From Candidatus Marinacidobacterales bacterium (GTDB taxonomy: Bacteria; Acidobacteriota; Vicinamibacteria; Marinacidobacterales; DATDRI01), in assembly GCA_965226495.1 (NCBI GenBank), contig OZ245365.1, forward strand, positions 4,832,001 through 4,896,000: DNA of 64,000 nucleotides. The letters run 5' to 3'. Position 1 is the first letter of the stretch, and every line of letters starts with the position of its first letter. The position numbers and the translations under genes were made by a program. Under the pieces are notes generated by a model. That model was not told where the DNA came from and made no database searches. It was given only the letters and a program-made list of their open reading frames with translations. Shown piece by piece: positions 33,544 to 40,283 of the stretch.

Positions 33544-33590
33544 GGGGCGCATGTTTACTAATTAGTGGCGCTGGGGCCCCAACGCCACTA
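33544..33590 (-). repeat. Partial third copy of the structured repeat (3' hairpin and tail)
   Basis: Minus strand GGCGTT-GGGGCCCC-AGCGCC-ACTAAT...ATGCGCCCC versus copy 2 GGGGCCCC-AGACC-AATGATGG-ATGCGCCCC. Confidence 0.55.
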
Positions 33591-35573
33591 GATAAGCTCC
33601 GGGTCGGCCAGGATCTCGACCAACGAGGGGCCGTCGTGCTCGAGGGCCGCTTTCAAAGCGTCCTCTAGGTCAGCCTTTGCGGATACTCGGAATCCTTTTG
33701 CCCCACATAGGTTGGCATACTCCGAGAAGTCCGGATTGTGCAGCGAGGTCTGCCAGACCTTCCAATTGCCGGAGCGTTGTTCCTTGCTAATCTTTCCGAG
33801 CTGGTCATTCCGGAGGAGCACGTGCGTAATCTTCATTCCATACTTCACCGCAGTCGTGAGCTCTCCCATGTACTGGCCGAAACCACCGTCACCGGAAACG
33901 GAAACGACGGGGCGTCCCTTGAAGCGAGGGTCATCCTCCTGGGTGGCGGCCCATGCGCCCATCGCGGCGGGAAAAGCGAAGCCGATCGATCCCAAATACC
34001 CCGACATCAAGATCGACTGTCGCGCACATTCGAAATAACGCCCGAACGAATAGGTATTGTTCCCCACGTCGACCGCAATGATGGCGTCGTCGGGAACGAG
34101 GCGGTTCATCGCGGCGAAGATCGATGCCGAATCGAGCCCCTTCCCGCGACCTTCGGTCTCTCGACGGCCCTTCTCCGCTCTCCAGATCGCCCAGCGCTCG
34201 GCGACCTCGGAGCGTTGATCGGTCGCGTCGCAGCCACCGCTGAGTCCGTCCTTGAGCAACGCCGCCGTCACGCCAATTTCGCCCCACACCGGGACGTCGA
34301 CGGCATGGAACTTCCCCAGCATCATTGGATCGAAGTCCACTTGGACTGTCGGTTTCTTAGGCGTGATCCCGGTGTGATCGCTAAAGCTCGCACCCAAAAC
34401 CAGGAGACAGTCGGATTCGTTCATGAACCAACTCGCGATCGGCGTCCCACTACGGCCTAACACACCACACCCCAGCGGGTGCGTATCCGAAACAAGCCCC
34501 TTCCCTTTGAACGTCGTGATCACCGGACTGTGTAATTTCTCCGCAAGCTCCAGGACGCCAGGCATATGGAACCGAGCCCCGTGACCCACGATGATGACCG
34601 GACGCTTCGCCCGACGGAGCATCTCGAGGGCCGCCTCGAGGGAATCTTGGGGCGGCGCGATATCACGTGGTGTGACTCGCCCTTTGGGCCCGCCGGCCTC
34701 CGCACCGTCCGCGGCCGGAAGCACCTGGACCTCGTCCGGAAAGATGAGATGCGAGACGCCGCGGTTGAGGATGGCGCTCTTGCAGGCTAGGTTCACTAGC
34801 TCGACGTGCTTGCTTCCGCGGAGAACCGGCTGCGACCATTGAGCGACCTTACCGAAGGCGGCTTGGAGATCCACCTCTTGAAACGCACCCGGACCTAATA
34901 CCTGCGTATTCACTTGGCCGGTCAAAGCCAGGACCGGTGCCCGATCGACATGGGCGTCCCACAAACCCGTGAGCAAGTTCGTTGCACCGGGGCCAGCGAT
35001 CCCCAAGCAGGCGGCCGGACGTCCGGTGAGCTTTCCGTACGCGGACACCGCAAAGGCCGCCGCCCCTTCGTGCCGGATACCGAAATAGCGGAGCTTCCCG
35101 CGCTCTTCCTGAACACGAAGGGCATCCGCCAACCCCAGATTGGAATGACCTACCATGCCGAATACCTGACGGACTCCCCAAGCGACCATCGTCTCCGCCA
35201 TGACATCGGTGACCGTACGGACGTGAGGTTCTTCTTCGTGGAACGCAACATAGACGCCGTCGTCTCGCACCTCAACCGGATAGGTGGCAACCCCATCGTC
35301 GTAGCCACCGGGCGGCTTCCCGGTCAAGGGCTCGTAGTCCCAGCCGTGCCACGGGCACCGGAGGTAGCCTTTTTCGATGGAGCCTTCACCTAAAGGACCA
35401 CCTTGATGCGGGCACTTGTTGTCGAGCGCCCCGTACTTCCCCTGGTGGTGCGTCATGCACACTGTCTCGAGACCACAGGTCACCGCCTTGACGCGACCTT
35501 CCGGGAGCTCGTCGGGCTCCAAAGCCTTGTACCAAACCTCGCGCGTCGAGCTACTGTTGTCTGAGCTGGCCAT
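33588..35573 (-). CDS. Rieske-domain-fused ThDP-dependent enzyme (pyruvate oxidase/ALS family)
   Basis: CPHQGGPL...CPWHGW (Rieske); RHEGAAAF, GPGATN, GDGGFG...N ThDP motif. Confidence 0.9.
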   Translation of the reverse strand: MASSDNSSSTREVWYKALEPDELPEGRVKAVTCGLETVCMTHHQGKYGALDNKCPHQGGPLGEGSIEKGYLRCPWHGWDYEPLTGKPPGGYDDGVATYPVEVRDDGVYVAFHEEEPHVRTVTDVMAETMVAWGVRQVFGMVGHSNLGLADALRVQEERGKLRYFGIRHEGAAAFAVSAYGKLTGRPAACLGIAGPGATNLLTGLWDAHVDRAPVLALTGQVNTQVLGPGAFQEVDLQAAFGKVAQWSQPVLRGSKHVELVNLACKSAILNRGVSHLIFPDEVQVLPAADGAEAGGPKGRVTPRDIAPPQDSLEAALEMLRRAKRPVIIVGHGARFHMPGVLELAEKLHSPVITTFKGKGLVSDTHPLGCGVLGRSGTPIASWFMNESDCLLVLGASFSDHTGITPKKPTVQVDFDPMMLGKFHAVDVPVWGEIGVTAALLKDGLSGGCDATDQRSEVAERWAIWRAEKGRRETEGRGKGLDSASIFAAMNRLVPDDAIIAVDVGNNTYSFGRYFECARQSILMSGYLGSIGFAFPAAMGAWAATQEDDPRFKGRPVVSVSGDGGFGQYMGELTTAVKYGMKITHVLLRNDQLGKISKEQRSGNWKVWQTSLHNPDFSEYANLCGAKGFRVSAKADLEDALKAALEHDGPSLVEILADPELI

Positions 35574-35603
35574 GGATTCGTCGCTCCTTCCGTCTCGCCC
35601 GAC

Positions 35604-36465
35604 TCACGGGATGAGCCCGCCGAGCGCGGAATCGATGAAGCTCCTAGCGCGATGCTTCTGGGCTTCCGCGGTACCGTCCGCCGTCATTTTTTCACCCAAC
35701 AAGATCGCACCGAAGAAGCCTTCGGTATGCCAATGTCCTCCACCGGCTAGTTCGAACTTGGGAGTATCGTCGGGGCGAGGATAAGGGTTTACGTAGAAAT
35801 AAGGCTGTGGGTAAGTGGCGTCTCCTGGCAACATGCCTACACCGATACTCTTCGCCGTTTCTGGATCCTTTTCCGGCTCGAGCAAAACGAGGAACCCGAT
35901 GTCGAAATGGTGCGGCCAACATCGAACCGCAGTGGTGAACGGTTGATTCGCCGCCACTTCCGTCAATACGAGCTCCGCATTCGCAAACCAGCGGCCCAGC
36001 TCTGCAAAGGCCGCGCGATCGTCACCGGAGAACGCACGTCCTTCTCCGACGGGGGTGACTCGGCATGTCATACTCCGTGGGCTTGTCGAGCGTGACGTGT
36101 TCTTCTTTCGTGACGGAACAGATAGCCGACCTCATCCACTCCAATCCTTCGTCGAGCGTCTTGCCGATCAAGCTTTGCCCGGGTACGGTCTCGGCAAGTC
36201 CCCCCTTCACACTGAGCTCCAAGTCCGTCACGTGAAGTGCCGCTCTCGGATGAGGTGAAGGCGAAATCGAATCGCCCGCCAGGAGCTTCGACGAAGCGAG
36301 GCATTCCATGCTGGCGTGGCTGTCATCTGCCTCGGGCTTGACCAAGGCCCGCCCCACCGCGGCCACGATTTGGGATGCCCAATGGAGTTGAAGTCTCCCC
36401 TCGGTAAGCTCGGTTGGGGGGACACCCCCTAGTCGTTCCCAACTGTGAGCAGAAGTGTCCGTCAC
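35604..36465 (-). pseudogene. DUF5996-like protein, frameshifted at a C5 run near 36053
   Basis: RLQLHWASQIV...DDSH...YDMPSHP, continuing in another frame as VGEGRAF...VRCWPHHFD...PGD..YPQPYFYVNPYP. A single extra C explains the break. Confidence 0.7.
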
Positions 36466-36491
36466 GTCGCCCTCCCTCTCGTCTTCTATTA

Positions 36492-38135
36492 TCAGAGTCC
36501 AACGACGCCAGCGTATGAGACGCCGGTGAGATAGGCAATGTCTCGCTTCCAGGTCGTCAGATCATTCAAAGAGAAATCCTTTAACCGTTCATGTCCACAC
36601 GCGCGCGCCAAGATTTTCATGAGTTCGACGGTGGCTTCCAGATAGTTATTGAGTTGCTTTGCGGATTCGTCCACAACCAGTCGTCGTCGAAGGCTCTCTT
36701 TTTGGGTCGCGATACCCACCGGGCAATTGTTGGTATGACATGCGCGCATTCCGAGACATCCAATCGCCTGAAGGGCGGAGTTCGCAATCGCAACCCCATC
36801 GGCACCCAAGGCCATCGCCTTGACGAAGTCCGATTCGGTTCGCAACCCGCCGGTGGCGATGAGAGTCACGTCCTTCGCTTCGCGCTTGTCGAGATGGACT
36901 CGGGCTCGCGCCAACGCCGCCATCGAGGGCACGGAAATGTTGTTCTTGAAGATCTCCGGAGCGGCACCGGTCGCACCGCCGCGCCCGTCCATGATGATGT
37001 AATCCACTCCGATCTCAAGAGCGAAGTCGATATCCACTTCCACGTGTTGGGCGGAGAGCTTGAAGCCGATTGGTATCCCACCCGCGACCTCGCGCACCTC
37101 GTCGGCGATACCGCGGAAGTCCTGGGGCTTTTCGAGGTCGGGGAAACGCGAGGGACTGATCGCCGATTGACCGGGCTCGAGACCGCGAACCGCCGCGATT
37201 TTCTCCGAGACTTTCTTGCCCGGAAGATGTCCTCCCGTGCCGGTCTTCGCGCCTTGGCCGCCCTTGAAATGAAACGCCTGTACTTTGCGAACCTTGTCCA
37301 GACTCCAGCCGAACCGAGCCGAGGCCAATTCGTAAAAGTAACGACTGTTCGCAGCCTGCTCCTCGGGAAGCATGCCTCCCTCGCCCGAGCAGATGCCGGT
37401 GCCGGCCATCTCCGCACCCTTCGCGAGCGCAGTCTTCGCCTCTTCACTCAAGGCACCGTAGCTCATGTCGCTGACGAACAAAGGAATCTCGAGACGCAAA
37501 GGCTTCTTTGCGTTCGGGCCAATGATGAGCTCAGTGCTTACGGGAACCTCTTCGAGAAGCGGTGGCCGTGCCAGTTGGCCAGTTAGGATTTGAATGTCGG
37601 TCCATCGCGGGAGCTCGGTGAGCGGCACTCCCATTGCCGAAACCGTTCCGTGTTGACCGACGTTCTTGAGCCCGTTCTTCGCCAGCTCTTGAATGGTTCC
37701 GTTATATGGCTCCTCGGGCCCGCCATGGATATCGGCATAAAGACCCAGGTACTCGTCGCGTCGGTAGGGCTGAGGATTTCCATCCTGCCAGGCGGCAATC
37801 TCGTTTTCGTCCACGTTCACGGAGTCATCGTCACGATCTATCCAAGCCTGAAACTTGTGCAGGCTCTCAGCATTGTTGTAATCGCTGACCCCTGTGTCGT
37901 AGCGGTAGTCCCAACCGTGAACGCCGCAGATCAAGTTATCTCGATCTATCGACCCGTCGGCCATGAGGGCGCCGCGGTGTTGACAACGACCGTAGAGAGC
38001 CGAGACGTTGTCGTCGTAGCGAACGATGACCAGGTCGACGTCCAGAACGCGGGCGTAGGTCGGCGTTCGATCCTCGAGAACACTCCACGTGGCCACTTTC
38101 ACCTTCTTGGCCGCTGCGGCTTCTTCTACAGCCAT
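36492..38135 (-). CDS. Rieske-domain-fused FMN-binding glutamate synthase-like protein
   Basis: CQHRG...CGVHGW (Rieske); MSYGALS, SGEGG, GQGAKTGTGGHLP, DGRGGATG, CLGMRACHTNNCPVG ([3Fe-4S]). Confidence 0.9.
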   Translation of the reverse strand: MAVEEAAAAKKVKVATWSVLEDRTPTYARVLDVDLVIVRYDDNVSALYGRCQHRGALMADGSIDRDNLICGVHGWDYRYDTGVSDYNNAESLHKFQAWIDRDDDSVNVDENEIAAWQDGNPQPYRRDEYLGLYADIHGGPEEPYNGTIQELAKNGLKNVGQHGTVSAMGVPLTELPRWTDIQILTGQLARPPLLEEVPVSTELIIGPNAKKPLRLEIPLFVSDMSYGALSEEAKTALAKGAEMAGTGICSGEGGMLPEEQAANSRYFYELASARFGWSLDKVRKVQAFHFKGGQGAKTGTGGHLPGKKVSEKIAAVRGLEPGQSAISPSRFPDLEKPQDFRGIADEVREVAGGIPIGFKLSAQHVEVDIDFALEIGVDYIIMDGRGGATGAAPEIFKNNISVPSMAALARARVHLDKREAKDVTLIATGGLRTESDFVKAMALGADGVAIANSALQAIGCLGMRACHTNNCPVGIATQKESLRRRLVVDESAKQLNNYLEATVELMKILARACGHERLKDFSLNDLTTWKRDIAYLTGVSYAGVVGL

Positions 38136-38374
38136 GCTGACCTCCTCGTCTTTAGATGCCTCGGACGTACCCGAGGTTACTGCCGCAGGATGGAAAGAGC
38201 AAGGATTCGAGATTAAGGACTTGACCTGGGACGAGACTTGGGTGAAAGTAAAAGTCTAAACTCCGCGCAATCTTAGGATGTGCGTGGCGGCTCGGCGCCG
38301 GGTTTGAGCGGCCCCAAGAGCTGGACGGGTTTGGGTCCGTCGTTATTGGTTACGCTCAGAAAGGAGGTGGTCCA

Positions 38375-38416
38375 TTGATTAGTTCTTCAGTTTCCGCGGA
38401 GGTGGCGTCCCCGTAG
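38375..38416 (+). CDS. Possible 13-aa peptide MISSSVSAEVASP
   Basis: TTG directly after AGAAAGGAGGTGGTCCA; TAG falls in a hairpin loop. Confidence 0.35.
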   Translation: MISSSVSAEVASP

Positions 38417-38504
38417 GGGGTGCATAGAAGCCTTCTTTCTGTTCGCAAAGGCAACGGCGCTCCCTCGATAGAAGGGGGTCCCAGCGCCACCAACGCGAAG
38501 CTAC

Positions 38505-38552
38505 AAAAAGCCCCGGTCTCGTCCATTGCGGCGGGCCGGGGCTTTCGCTTTT
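38505..38552. terminator. Bidirectional intrinsic terminator
   Basis: AAAAAGCCCCGGTCTCGTCC...GGCGGGCCGGGGCTTTCGCTTTT; A-tract before and T-tract after the stem. Confidence 0.8.
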
Positions 38553-38561
38553 CGCGCTACC

Positions 38562-40283
38562 TCAGTCGCCGGTGGAGCCTGGGCTGGAAGCACTTTGCAA
38601 TCTTTCTTCCCCCCGCATTTCGATATCACGCCGAGGAACGGGGTGTCGGATTCCCTCCTGGTCGAAGCGATCCTTAACCGCACGGGTGAGATCCCAGTAG
38701 ACGGCGAAGTAGTCCTCGGTCCGGACCCAGGGCCGGACGATGAAATCTACCGACCACTCGCTGAGCTCGTGGACCTTGATCGCAGTCGCGGGTTCCTTCA
38801 GAACGCGCTCGTCGCTTTGGACAACCTCCCACAGAATGCGTTCGGCCCGGGCGATGTCTTCGGAATGACTAACGCGAAACACGAGATCCACCCGCCGGGT
38901 GGGCTCGGCCGACTTGTTCCGGATGACGCTGCCCCAAATCTTTCCGTTGGGAACGATGAGCACCTGATTGTCGAACGTGGTTATGGACGTCGTCACGAGG
39001 CTCATCTTGGCGACTTTGCCCGACACGCCCGCCGCCTCAATGACGTGTCCTACATCAAAGGGTTGGTACACGAGGATCATCACACCTGCAGCGAAATTGG
39101 AAAGTGTGTCCTGTAGCGCAAACCCGACGATGAACCCAGCGATACCGAGACCGGCAAGCAGAGGTCCGAGCTCGATGCCAATCTGGGCCAACGCGATGAG
39201 AAAGCCGACAAGGAGAACCGCCCTCGAGGACATCGACACCGCAATATCGCGGAGAAGCATCGGTACCTTCTGCGAGGGGCTGGCGACACTTCTGGCCACG
39301 ATGCGTTGGACGATGTTGGCGAGCACCTTGGCGATCCCGACGATGATCAGGAACAGGAACATTTTAAGGATGAGGGAGACCCCATTGGCCTGGAGCCAAT
39401 CCACGAAACGATTCCAGCCTTGGTCCAAGAGCCCGAAAGCCACTCGCGAGTCGAAGATGTCGGAGGTCACGTTCCCGGTGGTCCGAATTAGGAGCTGCCG
39501 GTACTCGGTGGTGTCGAGCCCCCGCGAGTCCATGAGATCCACAACGCTCGTAAGACTGTTGCTCGCCGTGTGAACTCGCTGCTCCAATGCCCGTTGCTCG
39601 GCTCGGAGCTGGACCGCCGCGCTGCCCTCCACACCTTTCACGCTTTCCCGGACCACCGCGAGGCGATCTTGTGCGACTCCAATATGGGCATCCAGAGATG
39701 CCGCGTGATCGAGGAGGAGCCGGTCCAGGAACACTAGTTGCTCGCTCGCATCGATGCCAAGGTTCAGCGCGAACGTGCAGTACTTCAGGTAGCCCGACAT
39801 GAGCATATCCAACGCGAGAACCTCTTGAGCGATCTCTTGCTCGATGGCCAAATGCTCCTCTGGAGAGAGCTCGCTCCGTCGGCGCAGAAACTCGCTGACC
39901 AGCTCTCCTCGCCTGTCGATATCTTCCCGCAGCAGCGGGAAAGCGATGTCGAGGATCTCTTCCGCAACAGCTAGCGGTCGGTCCACCGGTTGAGCAGTGG
40001 CACGAAGCTGGTCGATGTTCTCAATGAGTTTCTCGAGCTTGTCGCGGATCTCATCCCCGCGTCGGCCGAGGCGCGCCCACAGGGCCACTCGATCGTCTCC
40101 GGTGGTTTCGACATAGCGAGCGTAGAGCTCCACCGCGTCGTCCTTGAGAGCATCGAGCTCGTCGGCGAGCTGCCCGGTCTCCGCGAGGAGAGATGGCTCC
40201 TGCGCGCTTGCTCCGGCGGCAAAAAGCCACCCCGCCAGCAATGCCAGGGCGCAGCCGTTCCTGGTTCTCATGCCAATTCTCAT
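38562..40283 (-). CDS. MscS-family mechanosensitive channel with large periplasmic helical domain
   Basis: GLGIAGFIVGFALQDTLSNFAAG, PFDVG, VPNGKIWG; N-terminal signal peptide. Confidence 0.92.
   Translation of the reverse strand: MRIGMRTRNGCALALLAGWLFAAGASAQEPSLLAETGQLADELDALKDDAVELYARYVETTGDDRVALWARLGRRGDEIRDKLEKLIENIDQLRATAQPVDRPLAVAEEILDIAFPLLREDIDRRGELVSEFLRRRSELSPEEHLAIEQEIAQEVLALDMLMSGYLKYCTFALNLGIDASEQLVFLDRLLLDHAASLDAHIGVAQDRLAVVRESVKGVEGSAAVQLRAEQRALEQRVHTASNSLTSVVDLMDSRGLDTTEYRQLLIRTTGNVTSDIFDSRVAFGLLDQGWNRFVDWLQANGVSLILKMFLFLIIVGIAKVLANIVQRIVARSVASPSQKVPMLLRDIAVSMSSRAVLLVGFLIALAQIGIELGPLLAGLGIAGFIVGFALQDTLSNFAAGVMILVYQPFDVGHVIEAAGVSGKVAKMSLVTTSITTFDNQVLIVPNGKIWGSVIRNKSAEPTRRVDLVFRVSHSEDIARAERILWEVVQSDERVLKEPATAIKVHELSEWSVDFIVRPWVRTEDYFAVYWDLTRAVKDRFDQEGIRHPVPRRDIEMRGEERLQSASSPGSTGD

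Follow-up and report, generated by a model that had tools for sequence, protein, structure and literature searches.

A putative ribosome-engaging small RNA of Acidobacteriota with a long 16S-complementary tract, a conserved mini-ORF and a pseudoknotted 5′ domain

Very short translated open reading frames (ORFs) are found in leaders of the trpL, tnaC and ermCL type, where translation of the ORF remodels downstream pairing ahead of a terminator. The prfB frameshift site carries an internal Shine-Dalgarno (SD)-like sequence placed a short, constant distance before an in-frame stop, and the anti-SD of the elongating ribosome re-pairs near termination. Dual-function small RNAs (SgrS/SgrT, RNAIII, SR1) are also translated, into peptides that are conserved as peptides. 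Here we describe an element of about 270 nt at 38284-38552 on the + strand of a 64,000-nt stretch of DNA from a Candidatus Marinacidobacterales bacterium (contig OZ245365.1), hereafter the window. The element is predicted to be a stand-alone, single-copy, highly structured small RNA gene present across many Acidobacteriota. The predicted family architecture consists of a 5′ pseudoknot domain, an exposed and very long SD tract (SD1) followed by a GUG or UUG start codon, and a mini-ORF whose 3′ half, including a second GGAGGUGG (SD2), forms a long-range helix (P3). The element most likely represents a ribosome-actuated RNA switch or ribosome-engaging RNA, by a mechanism proposed below.

CC2171 (RF01867) is the closest known analogue of the element and not the same family. 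It is found in Caulobacter and other Alphaproteobacteria, a different phylum from that of the element. A preprint reports that its expression was confirmed by Northern blot and gives its function as not known (bioRxiv 10.1101/2022.01.24.477521). Like the element, CC2171 is a stand-alone small RNA whose Rfam consensus carries GAAAGGAGGUGAUCCA directly followed by GUG and has a GC-rich terminator end. Unlike the element, it has no counterpart of the 5′ pseudoknot domain, SD2 or the CCCA-CGCCACC strand. The whole window contained no Rfam 15 family at gathering score, and CC2171 was the sole Rfam family that repeatedly touched the element, scoring 17.3 bits in the window and 19.3-29.2 bits in 9 of 20 related loci compared to a gathering score of 75. 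In these alignments agreement is limited to GAAAGGAGGUG(A/G)UCCA with the GUG and to the terminator, and the CC2171 consensus helices between them are not kept, showing many non-standard pairs and long unaligned insertions. Membership of the element in CC2171 was rejected on both grounds, the low scores and the missing helices. The CC2171 consensus contains the same 16-nt 16S-tail complement followed by GUG, with an in-frame UAA about 22 codons on in the helix region. CC2171 may also be a mini-ORF RNA, a lead taken from the printed consensus and not from a real sequence.

Other annotated RNA families do not account for the element. A relation of its 3′ hairpins to the Acidobacteria motifs Acido-1 (RF01686) or Acido-Lenti-1 (RF01687; accessions as in Table 1 of PMC2864571) had been suggested in a preliminary description of the locus, and a cmscan-type Rfam scan of 38050-38650 returned no match to either on the element at E<=10. 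In 20 related loci Acido-1 gave a single 23-bit match (cut-off 50) at L202:2300-2357, away from the element. Identity with a housekeeping RNA was rejected for the two that were looked for in the genome, SRP RNA and RNase P RNA not being among them: tmRNA (RF00023), found in canonical form elsewhere in the genome at 174 bits, while the element has an SD and a start codon, and 6S RNA (RF00013), found elsewhere in the genome at 107.6 bits. The full-text literature yielded no description of the family, supplementary files such as the additional files of PMC2864571 being outside the scope of that search.

The element also differs from each functional class that it resembles. The 5′ mRNA stabiliser STAB-SD of cry3A in Bacillus thuringiensis contains an SD-like tract complementary to the 16S 3′ end, and the bound 30S acts on the RNA itself and not on protein output (PMC4113751). 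STAB-SD directs no initiation and lies in the 5′ untranslated region (UTR) of a long mRNA, whereas the element has a start codon 7-8 nt downstream, a conserved frame and no long gene of its own. Leader-peptide attenuators share with it a short translated ORF, translation of the element being inferred from frame conservation, and a terminator. However, the trpL, tnaC and ermCL types contain regulatory codons or a conserved arrest peptide, switch between terminator and antiterminator and control a downstream gene, and nothing of this was found for the element; no antiterminator was seen in consensus folds, in a search that was not exhaustive. prfB combines a 3-nt spacing, a UGA stop and a slippery CUU with an ORF that goes on in the +1 frame, compared to a spacing of 8 nt, UAG or UAA in 45/46 sequences, no conserved slippery site and no downstream frame in the element. 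In contrast to dual-function small RNAs, the encoded peptide is variable except where RNA pairing fixes codons. Compared to riboswitches, the 5′ domain has a predicted aptamer-like fold but no Rfam match and no consistent downstream gene.

The 16S-complementary tract and the mini-ORF

SD1 is complementary to the 16S tail of its own genome over its entire length. The single 16S gene of this genome ends ...CTGGATCACCTCCTTTCTaagg (tail also written ...CTGGATCACCTCCTTTCT) and SD1 pairs with it at 17/17 positions, through 16 Watson-Crick pairs and one G-U pair, which bears out a complementarity first read against the canonical 16S end. Sites matching the SD1 15-mer core with at most one mismatch number three in the 6.3-Mb genome (the element, the rDNA and one coding-region site with 1 mismatch), and the reversed control pattern has 0 occurrences there. 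The complementarity is kept in relatives and evolves in a wobble-compatible manner. In 46 sequences obtained by BLAST and covariance model, the variants of the 11-nt core, tallied by eye, are GGAGGTGGTCC (18 sequences), the perfect complement GGAGGTGATCC (9), GGAGGTGATCT (6), GGAGGTGGTCT (4), GGGGGTGATCC (4), GGAGGTGATTC (2), GGAGGTGATTT (2) and GGAGGCGATTC (1). In 43 of the 44 cells that differ from the perfect complement the change is A>G facing U or C>T facing G, and a pair is kept; the remaining one is T>C opposite A with the pair lost, and no G>A opposite C is present among the changes. This pattern is as expected for a tract that would have to pair with an unchanging partner. All 6 genomes checked, this one and five carriers whose SD1 is a variant, have the same 16S tail GGATCACCTCCTTTCT, so that only wobble compatibility is demonstrable and no trans-covariation with 16S. 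The GGAGG of SD1 ends 7 nt (42/46) or 8 nt (4/46) before the start codon.

A tract of this kind could also serve as a 30S sponge or as an RNA hibernation or protection factor that holds the 16S tail in a 13-17-bp duplex, parking idle 30S subunits or shielding the tail from 3′ exonucleases, with a mini-ORF that only clears or recycles ribosomes. The length of SD1, far beyond that of an ordinary SD, its maintained pairing with an invariant 16S tail, the start codon (ATG in 0/46) and a single-copy, housekeeping-like and neighbour-independent gene are all compatible with such a role. STAB-SD provides a precedent for 30S binding to an SD-like tract without initiation (PMC4113751), and degradation of 30S subunits by RNase R, the topic of another paper, was noted in this context (PMC10901742). 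We nevertheless regard a sponge as unlikely: the strong selection on frame and stop position described below points to a role of elongation and termination for which a pure sponge would have no use, one RNA per subunit would require high abundance and the elaborate 5′ and 3′ domains would be left unexplained.

The mini-ORF is almost certainly translated, as judged from conservation of its frame. A pattern scan combined with earlier searches identified 149 elements in loci. Without a chance match at L135, which falls within a long ORF, and without the five elements of a 43-nt variant, 143 remain, 123 of them unique. The SD1-to-SD2 span in the unique sequences is 45, 48, 51 or 54 nt (27, 90, 5 and 1 of 123, respectively), and the pattern permitted any span. 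From the start codon to SD2 they contain 0 stops in frame compared to 131 and 92 in the other two frames. As this set is biased by the search pattern, the test was repeated on the 46 BLAST and covariance-model sequences, where start codons are GTG (41), TTG (5) and ATG (0) and the ORF has 13-15 codons. Across the family the mini-ORF is 13-16 codons long with length differences only in steps of 3 nt. The TTG...TAG frame with a second GGAGGTGG inside it and its stop in a hairpin loop, as originally read from the window, is thus present and is kept as a reading frame in relatives.

Selection appears to act on translation of the frame and not on the sequence of the peptide. Residues 2-8 vary freely (SNSS, IEGKH, EYCRC, DDYGS and others) and E-V-A-(S/A/T)-x at the C-terminus hardly changes. 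G-GAG-GUG-GCG, which encodes the constant E-V-A, is unvarying at third codon positions too and forms helix P3a, while the codons before it, G-(L/S/F) or V-S, form P3b. The invariant third positions together with pairing in P3a indicate a constraint on the RNA, not the peptide. A micropeptide gene, in which a peptide of 13-16 residues would be the product and the RNA structure would only tune expression, is in line with the conserved ORF, its very strong ribosome-binding site and the near-invariant C-terminus. We consider this option, raised in the preliminary description, highly improbable because the only conserved residues derive from RNA-paired nucleotides (those encoded by GGAGGTGGCG), residues 2-8 being free to vary, and because no conserved modification or export genes are present among the scanned downstream neighbours.

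SD2 is located at a fixed distance from the stop codon. In 46/46 sequences the first base of the stop is exactly 16 nt downstream of the first base of SD2, and 8 nt separate the GGAGG of SD2 from the last sense codon. Once the stop is in the ribosomal A site, SD2 consequently takes the place that an SD has at initiation. The stop lies within a hairpin loop of <=8 nt in 40/46 sequences compared to 335/920 shuffles, and the stems of this hairpin are lineage-dependent (CCCC/GGGG, CCUC/GAGG, CCCU/AGGG and CCCG/CGGG). Stops of the mini-ORF are TAG in 37, TAA in 8 and TGA in 1 (n=46), while the 426 long ORFs of the same loci end in TGA (243), TAG (141) and TAA (42). This bias may reflect a constraint on the loop sequence or a preference for stops read by release factor 1 (RF1), a link to RF1 that we infer. 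An alternative pairing of SD2 with a post-stop CCUCC was rejected, with 64.7% paired versus 64.7% in shuffled and slid controls.

Folding of the 5′ and 3′ domains

Covariation supports the predicted pseudoknotted 5′ domain. Its four helices (Pa, Pb, P1 and P2; Table 1) were tested in alignment A3, which contains 70 sequences at <85% identity. Overall, 94.1% of cells are paired and 17/20 pairs show compensatory changes. There are 103 compensatory cells compared to 25 in shuffles, with 0/500 shuffles reaching the observed values, and slid controls, in which partners were shifted by one to three columns, are at most 51% paired. P1 joins the loop of Pb to the strand after P2 and so crosses Pa and Pb; the window possesses an A-U variant of a G-C pair in P1. 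The P2 loop TTTGGG (38330-38335) is conserved. P1 and P2 correspond to the hairpin TGAGCG/CGCTCA with inner GACGG/CCGTC noted at the outset, and both are present and covariation-backed. Three features were missing from the preliminary description and are added here: the pseudoknotted nature of the domain, the pairing of CGCCACC over a long range with the 3′ half of the ORF, and the constant spacing between the second GGAGG and the stop. The + strand folds better than shuffles (z -3.25, 0/200 shuffles equal) and the - strand does not (z -0.64); in addition, the many G-U pairs in the helices fix the RNA strand as +. A possible extra hairpin at 38263-38287 may belong to the 5′ end of the RNA. Stretches of the form TTCCGCG...CGCGG, similar to this hairpin, are located upstream of the element in relatives from families f6 and f16.

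A stretch resembling the 16S 3′ tail is found just past the stop hairpin in some lineages. This CCUUCUUUCU-type stretch is present in the window (38431-38441) and at L206, L208, L211, L213, L214 and L217 and can pair with SD1 and the 3′ strand of P1. By eye, its flank appears to vary in step between lineages (GCUCG/CGAGC, GCUCA/UGAGC, GCUCGG/CCGAGC). Most Thermoanaerobaculia-type members carry CCUCC(A) instead, the look-alike being absent or much shorter. The duplex of SD1 with the look-alike in the window has a predicted energy of -21.1 kcal/mol compared to -14.9 kcal/mol for shuffles. Across the 46 sequences the duplex of SD1 with the post-stop region beats shuffles by >=3 kcal/mol in 17 and is no better than chance in 29. 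This hints at pairing of SD1 with the 16S-tail look-alike as a possible OFF state in some lineages, not in general. Such pairing could be how a ligand- or protein-responsive RNA works in these lineages, its 5′ domain being an aptamer or protein site that gates SD1 and translation of the mini-ORF, and this gating would be compatible with a ribosome-actuated switch as its input. A nested pseudoknotted fold with strong covariation that ends 3-4 nt before SD1 would suit this role, as would the duplex strength in the 17 sequences, which include the window, and the apparent co-variation of the flank. We regard it as quite unlikely given the chance-level pairing in 29/46, the lack of likeness to any Rfam riboswitch in the window and 20 related loci and a missing regulated gene, which leaves no hint of a ligand.

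The 3′ half of the ORF pairs with the strand just before the terminator in alignment A4, which comprises 59 full-length sequences and was used for P3a, P3b, PK2 and P4. Part of this predicted long-range helix, P3, is backed by covariation; the second half of the ORF provides its 5′ strand. In five f36 loci found without the pattern (L206, L208, L211, L214, L217) GGTGGCA co-occurs with TGCCACC, a compensatory change in P3a; L211 and L214 have a TGTCACC version opposite GGTGGCA. A candidate pseudoknot, PK2, is formed by the GGG of the P2 loop, which is complementary to the CCC of the invariant CCCA preceding CGCCACC. As the PK2 bases barely vary, covariation neither supports nor contradicts it. 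A fifth PK2 pair, first read as covarying in a few lineages, was rejected since it is unpaired in 47/59 sequences, which leaves of PK2 the conserved complementarity of GGG and CCC (plus U-A). A candidate helix P4, in which CCUCC would pair with a GGAGG further downstream, is about 66% paired and lies in a gappy region.

The 3′ hairpins initially proposed for the window are partly retained. The CTCCCT/AGGGGG pairing is real (P5), but the GGCGCT/AGCGCC pairing drawn outside it skips six bases (GGTCCC) that had been omitted, and the AGCGCC of the family is part of CCCAGCGCCACC, which pairs elsewhere and not with GGCGCT. A CTGTT/AACGG hairpin falls in a non-conserved region. The proposed bidirectional terminator is present and flanked by T-runs on both strands. 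It is found in 19/19 aligned members of the order, its stem being kept with compensatory changes.

Table 1. Features of the element and their positions in the window (paired segments are separated by a colon; compensatory counts are pairs with compensatory changes).
Feature	Position	Strand	Segments or sequence	Basis
Possible extra 5′ hairpin	38263..38287	+	CCGCGCA / TGCGTGG	read from sequence
Helix Pa	38289..38322	+	GGCTC 38289-38293 : GAGCT 38318-38322	94.6% paired, 5/5 pairs compensatory
Hairpin Pb, enclosed by Pa		+	GGT 38301-38303 : GCC 38311-38313	92.9% paired, 3/3 pairs compensatory
Pseudoknot helix P1		+	Pb loop TGAGCG 38305-38310 : CGCTCA 38353-38358	93.1% paired, 3/6 pairs compensatory
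Hairpin P2		+	GACGGG 38324-38329 : TCCGTC 38336-38341	95.5% paired, 6/6 pairs compensatory
SD1, 17-nt complement of 16S 3′ tail	38358..38374	+	AGAAAGGAGGTGGTCCA	single-stranded between P1 and start codon
Mini-ORF, 13 codons	38375..38416	+	TTG start 38375; MISSSVSAEVASP; TAG stop 38414-38416	frame-preserving lengths, no in-frame stops
Helix P3b		+	AGTTTC-C-GC 38389..38397 : GCGAAGCT 38495..38502	77.6% paired, 6/6 pairs compensatory
SD2, within ORF	38398..38407	+	GGAGGTGGCG (its GGAGGTGG at 38398-38405)	fixed spacing to stop; overlap with P3a
Helix P3a		+	GGTGGCG 38401-38407 : CGCCACC 38485-38491	100% of cells paired
Small hairpin with stop in loop	38407..38423	+	loop GTAG 38413-38416	loop-position test versus shuffles
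Look-alike of 16S tail	38431..38441	+	CCTTCTTTCTG, can pair with CAGAAAGGAGG of SD1	only some lineages
Hairpin P5		+	CTCCCT 38460-38465 : AGGGGG 38473-38478	C-rich/G-rich hairpin at same place in listed relatives
PK2 partner (CCCA) and P3a 3′ strand (CGCCACC)	38480..38491	+	CCCA-G-CGCCACC	complementarity; P3a pairing
Bidirectional intrinsic terminator, shared with convergent MscS-like gene	38510..38552	.	stem GCCCCGG 38510-38516 : CCGGGGC 38536-38542	

Distribution and gene neighbourhoods

The element is conserved in a family-wise manner. BLAST searches with the 426-nt spacer as query yielded matches in 22 of 41 related genomes, including one weak 24-nt match (G007) that is not counted as an instance. 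The conserved part of the query, about 146-417, corresponds to about 38281-38552 of the window. By family, matches were found in 5/7 (f1), 16/17 (f2) and 0/16 (f3) genomes. R1, a 144-position covariance model of the 5′ two-thirds, identified the element in 28/151 genomes of the class and 24/151 genomes of a phylum sample, with exactly one match per carrier. Presence is all-or-nothing by family, for example 17/18 in f2, 5/5 in f18, 6/6 in f36, 0/27 in f3 and 0/39 in f7. Carrier families are f1, f2, f6, f16, f17, f18, f36, f58, f65 and f76. The R1 searches ran with the stricter filters of Infernal, so that absence means not found in those searched, as was the case for the searched genomes of f3, f7, f9, f34, f41, f43 and f44. 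Family f3, of the same order and with small genomes of 2.7-4.2 Mb, has 0/27 carriers compared to 17/18 in its sister family f2, which suggests a loss that might track gene content. When one genome per prokaryotic species was scanned with a strict two-motif pattern, at least 119 records matched, almost all labelled Acidobacteriota. Among the matches listed are Thermoanaerobaculia, Vicinamibacteria, Holophagales, Ca. Multivoradales / Multivorans and Ca. Marinacidobacterales as well as a few metagenome-assembled genomes labelled Gemmatimonadota or Eisenbacteria. Overall, the element is recovered in relatives with RNA structure and frame kept, in contrast to the peptide.

In the window the element is sited between two minus-strand genes. 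It is located directly upstream of 36492-38135, which encodes a Rieske and glutamate-synthase-domain (GltS-like) protein, and its terminator faces a convergent MscS-like channel gene at 38562-40283 (both assigned by Pfam). The position relative to the first gene would be compatible with a 5′ UTR or promoter of that gene; a ribosome-binding site of a decayed gene or a 16S-derived fragment would likewise make the element dependent on something else. The probability of any such origin is close to negligible, as the element is conserved beside different neighbours, its helices contain many G-U pairs, which would form only on the + strand, the - strand fold is no better than shuffles and similarity to 16S is confined to the 17-nt complement. 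That it occurs as one copy per genome, followed by a terminator of its own and in varying surroundings, instead agrees with the stand-alone structured RNA gene envisaged in the preliminary description. In two neighbouring enzymes encoded at 33588-38135 (- strand) an N-terminal Rieske [2Fe-2S] domain is fused to another part, which is a thiamine-pyrophosphate enzyme in one (33588-35573) and a glutamate-synthase central domain in the other (36492-38135). These Rieske-fusion genes are separated by two small ORFs without a Pfam match.

Downstream genes differ in orientation and function. Neighbour genes were called with a rough heuristic based on GC content at third codon positions (GC3). Of 128 loci, 82 have a co-directional downstream gene and 37 a convergent one, with no gene called in the remaining 9. 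The 67 co-directional downstream genes that were scanned belong to unrelated Pfam families, with a Mo-hydroxylase in 22 (one clade) and histidine kinases, TetR, thiolase, chalcone synthase, cupin, DUF4159 and more in others. In genus g9 and its neighbours a cupin gene begins 20-30 nt past the terminator. A cis-acting leader or attenuator, in which translation of the mini-ORF would control terminator read-through into the downstream gene, could draw on the 82 co-directional loci, on this cupin gene and on a polyketide synthase gene that follows the 43-nt variant at 3 loci. The neighbourhoods as a whole make such an attenuator improbable: the downstream gene is convergent in 37/128 loci, the window included, downstream functions are unrelated and consensus folds revealed no antiterminator pairing in the non-exhaustive search mentioned above. 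Co-orientation of about 64% is, moreover, ordinary for neighbouring bacterial genes.

Two arrangements depart from the usual one. In one f6 genome (L193:62-135) a tRNA gene is located about 30 nt beyond the element terminator on the opposite strand. The minimal 43-nt variant (L117, L118, L142, L155, L162), named for its SD1-to-SD2 span, encodes an ORF of the type MHK(L/I/N)GLSGGGGS in another frame relative to SD2, with 7 nt from SD2 to the last codon. It possesses no 5′ pseudoknot domain and carries a TTGAC-type promoter box just upstream, and it retains CCCAAC-CGCCA(A/T)CC and the terminator. A type III polyketide synthase gene is found directly after the variant in 3/3 loci tested, offering no clue to translation. 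Among the matches listed, L117 and L118 are labelled Acidobacteriota and Eisenbacteria.

A proposed ribosome-actuated mechanism

The comparison yields a predicted structured RNA with an exposed 16S-pairing tract, a translated frame, a helix strand embedded in the ORF and a fixed stop. These features could be combined in a ribosome-actuated switch. A 30S subunit would dock on SD1 via its anti-SD tail and the ribosome would translate the mini-ORF, unzipping P3. At the stop, the terminating ribosome would re-pair its anti-SD with SD2 and dwell there. SD2 is located 8 nt from the P-site codon, which equals the geometry of SD1 and the start codon (7-8 nt), so that a terminating ribosome could re-pair with SD2. 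Dwelling would hold P3 open and free the 3′ domain, including the CCCA-CGCCACC strand. The conformation of the RNA, and what its domains bind or do, would then be set by ribosome loading and termination and report translation capacity.

We put this switch forward tentatively, with a likelihood slightly short of even, and several observations weigh against it. No output, be it a target, a partner or an antiterminator, was identified. The fixed distance from SD2 to the stop could reflect the stop hairpin abutting P3a instead of ribosome geometry. The first two bases of SD2 differ in 4/46 sequences (CG, GA, TA, TG), so the full GGAGG is not universal. Changes in P3a are one-sided only in the 59-sequence alignment, with no double compensatory change, and the GGG:CCC pairs of PK2 are nearly invariant (51, 59 and 58 of 59) but show no covariation. 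In addition, the sequences are mutually related and the counts given above overstate their independence.

A phylum-wide housekeeping RNA with the ribosome as its ligand is possible, if somewhat unlikely. Here a 13-17-bp duplex with the anti-SD would capture a 30S subunit, and short translation would carry the ribosome to a second docking site at the stop, with the RNA parking and protecting ribosomes or reporting free translation capacity to a partner. CC2171 might be a convergent or distant analogue of such an RNA, and the comparison flags it as a possibly related puzzle.

Overall, the element exhibits traits of a core cellular RNA, namely one copy per genome, conservation across classes, a covariation-backed pseudoknot and independence of its neighbours, and combines them with a build in which a mini-ORF that is almost certainly translated and indifferent to its peptide is joined to a complementarity to the 16S tail that is exceptionally long and kept in evolution. 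Soils and sediments are rich in Acidobacteriota, whose RNA biology is almost unexplored. Whatever the function of the element, the alignments together with the covariance model delimit a new RNA family that Rfam-type annotation can use. If the RNA acts as a housekeeping RNA with the ribosome as ligand, it would be an RNA counterpart of protein hibernation or ribosome-sensing factors. If it is actuated by the ribosome, an RNA device would be driven mechanically by translation in a setting other than that of the classical leader peptides, and the element would offer a handle on how ribosomes are monitored or stored in slow-growing oligotrophs.

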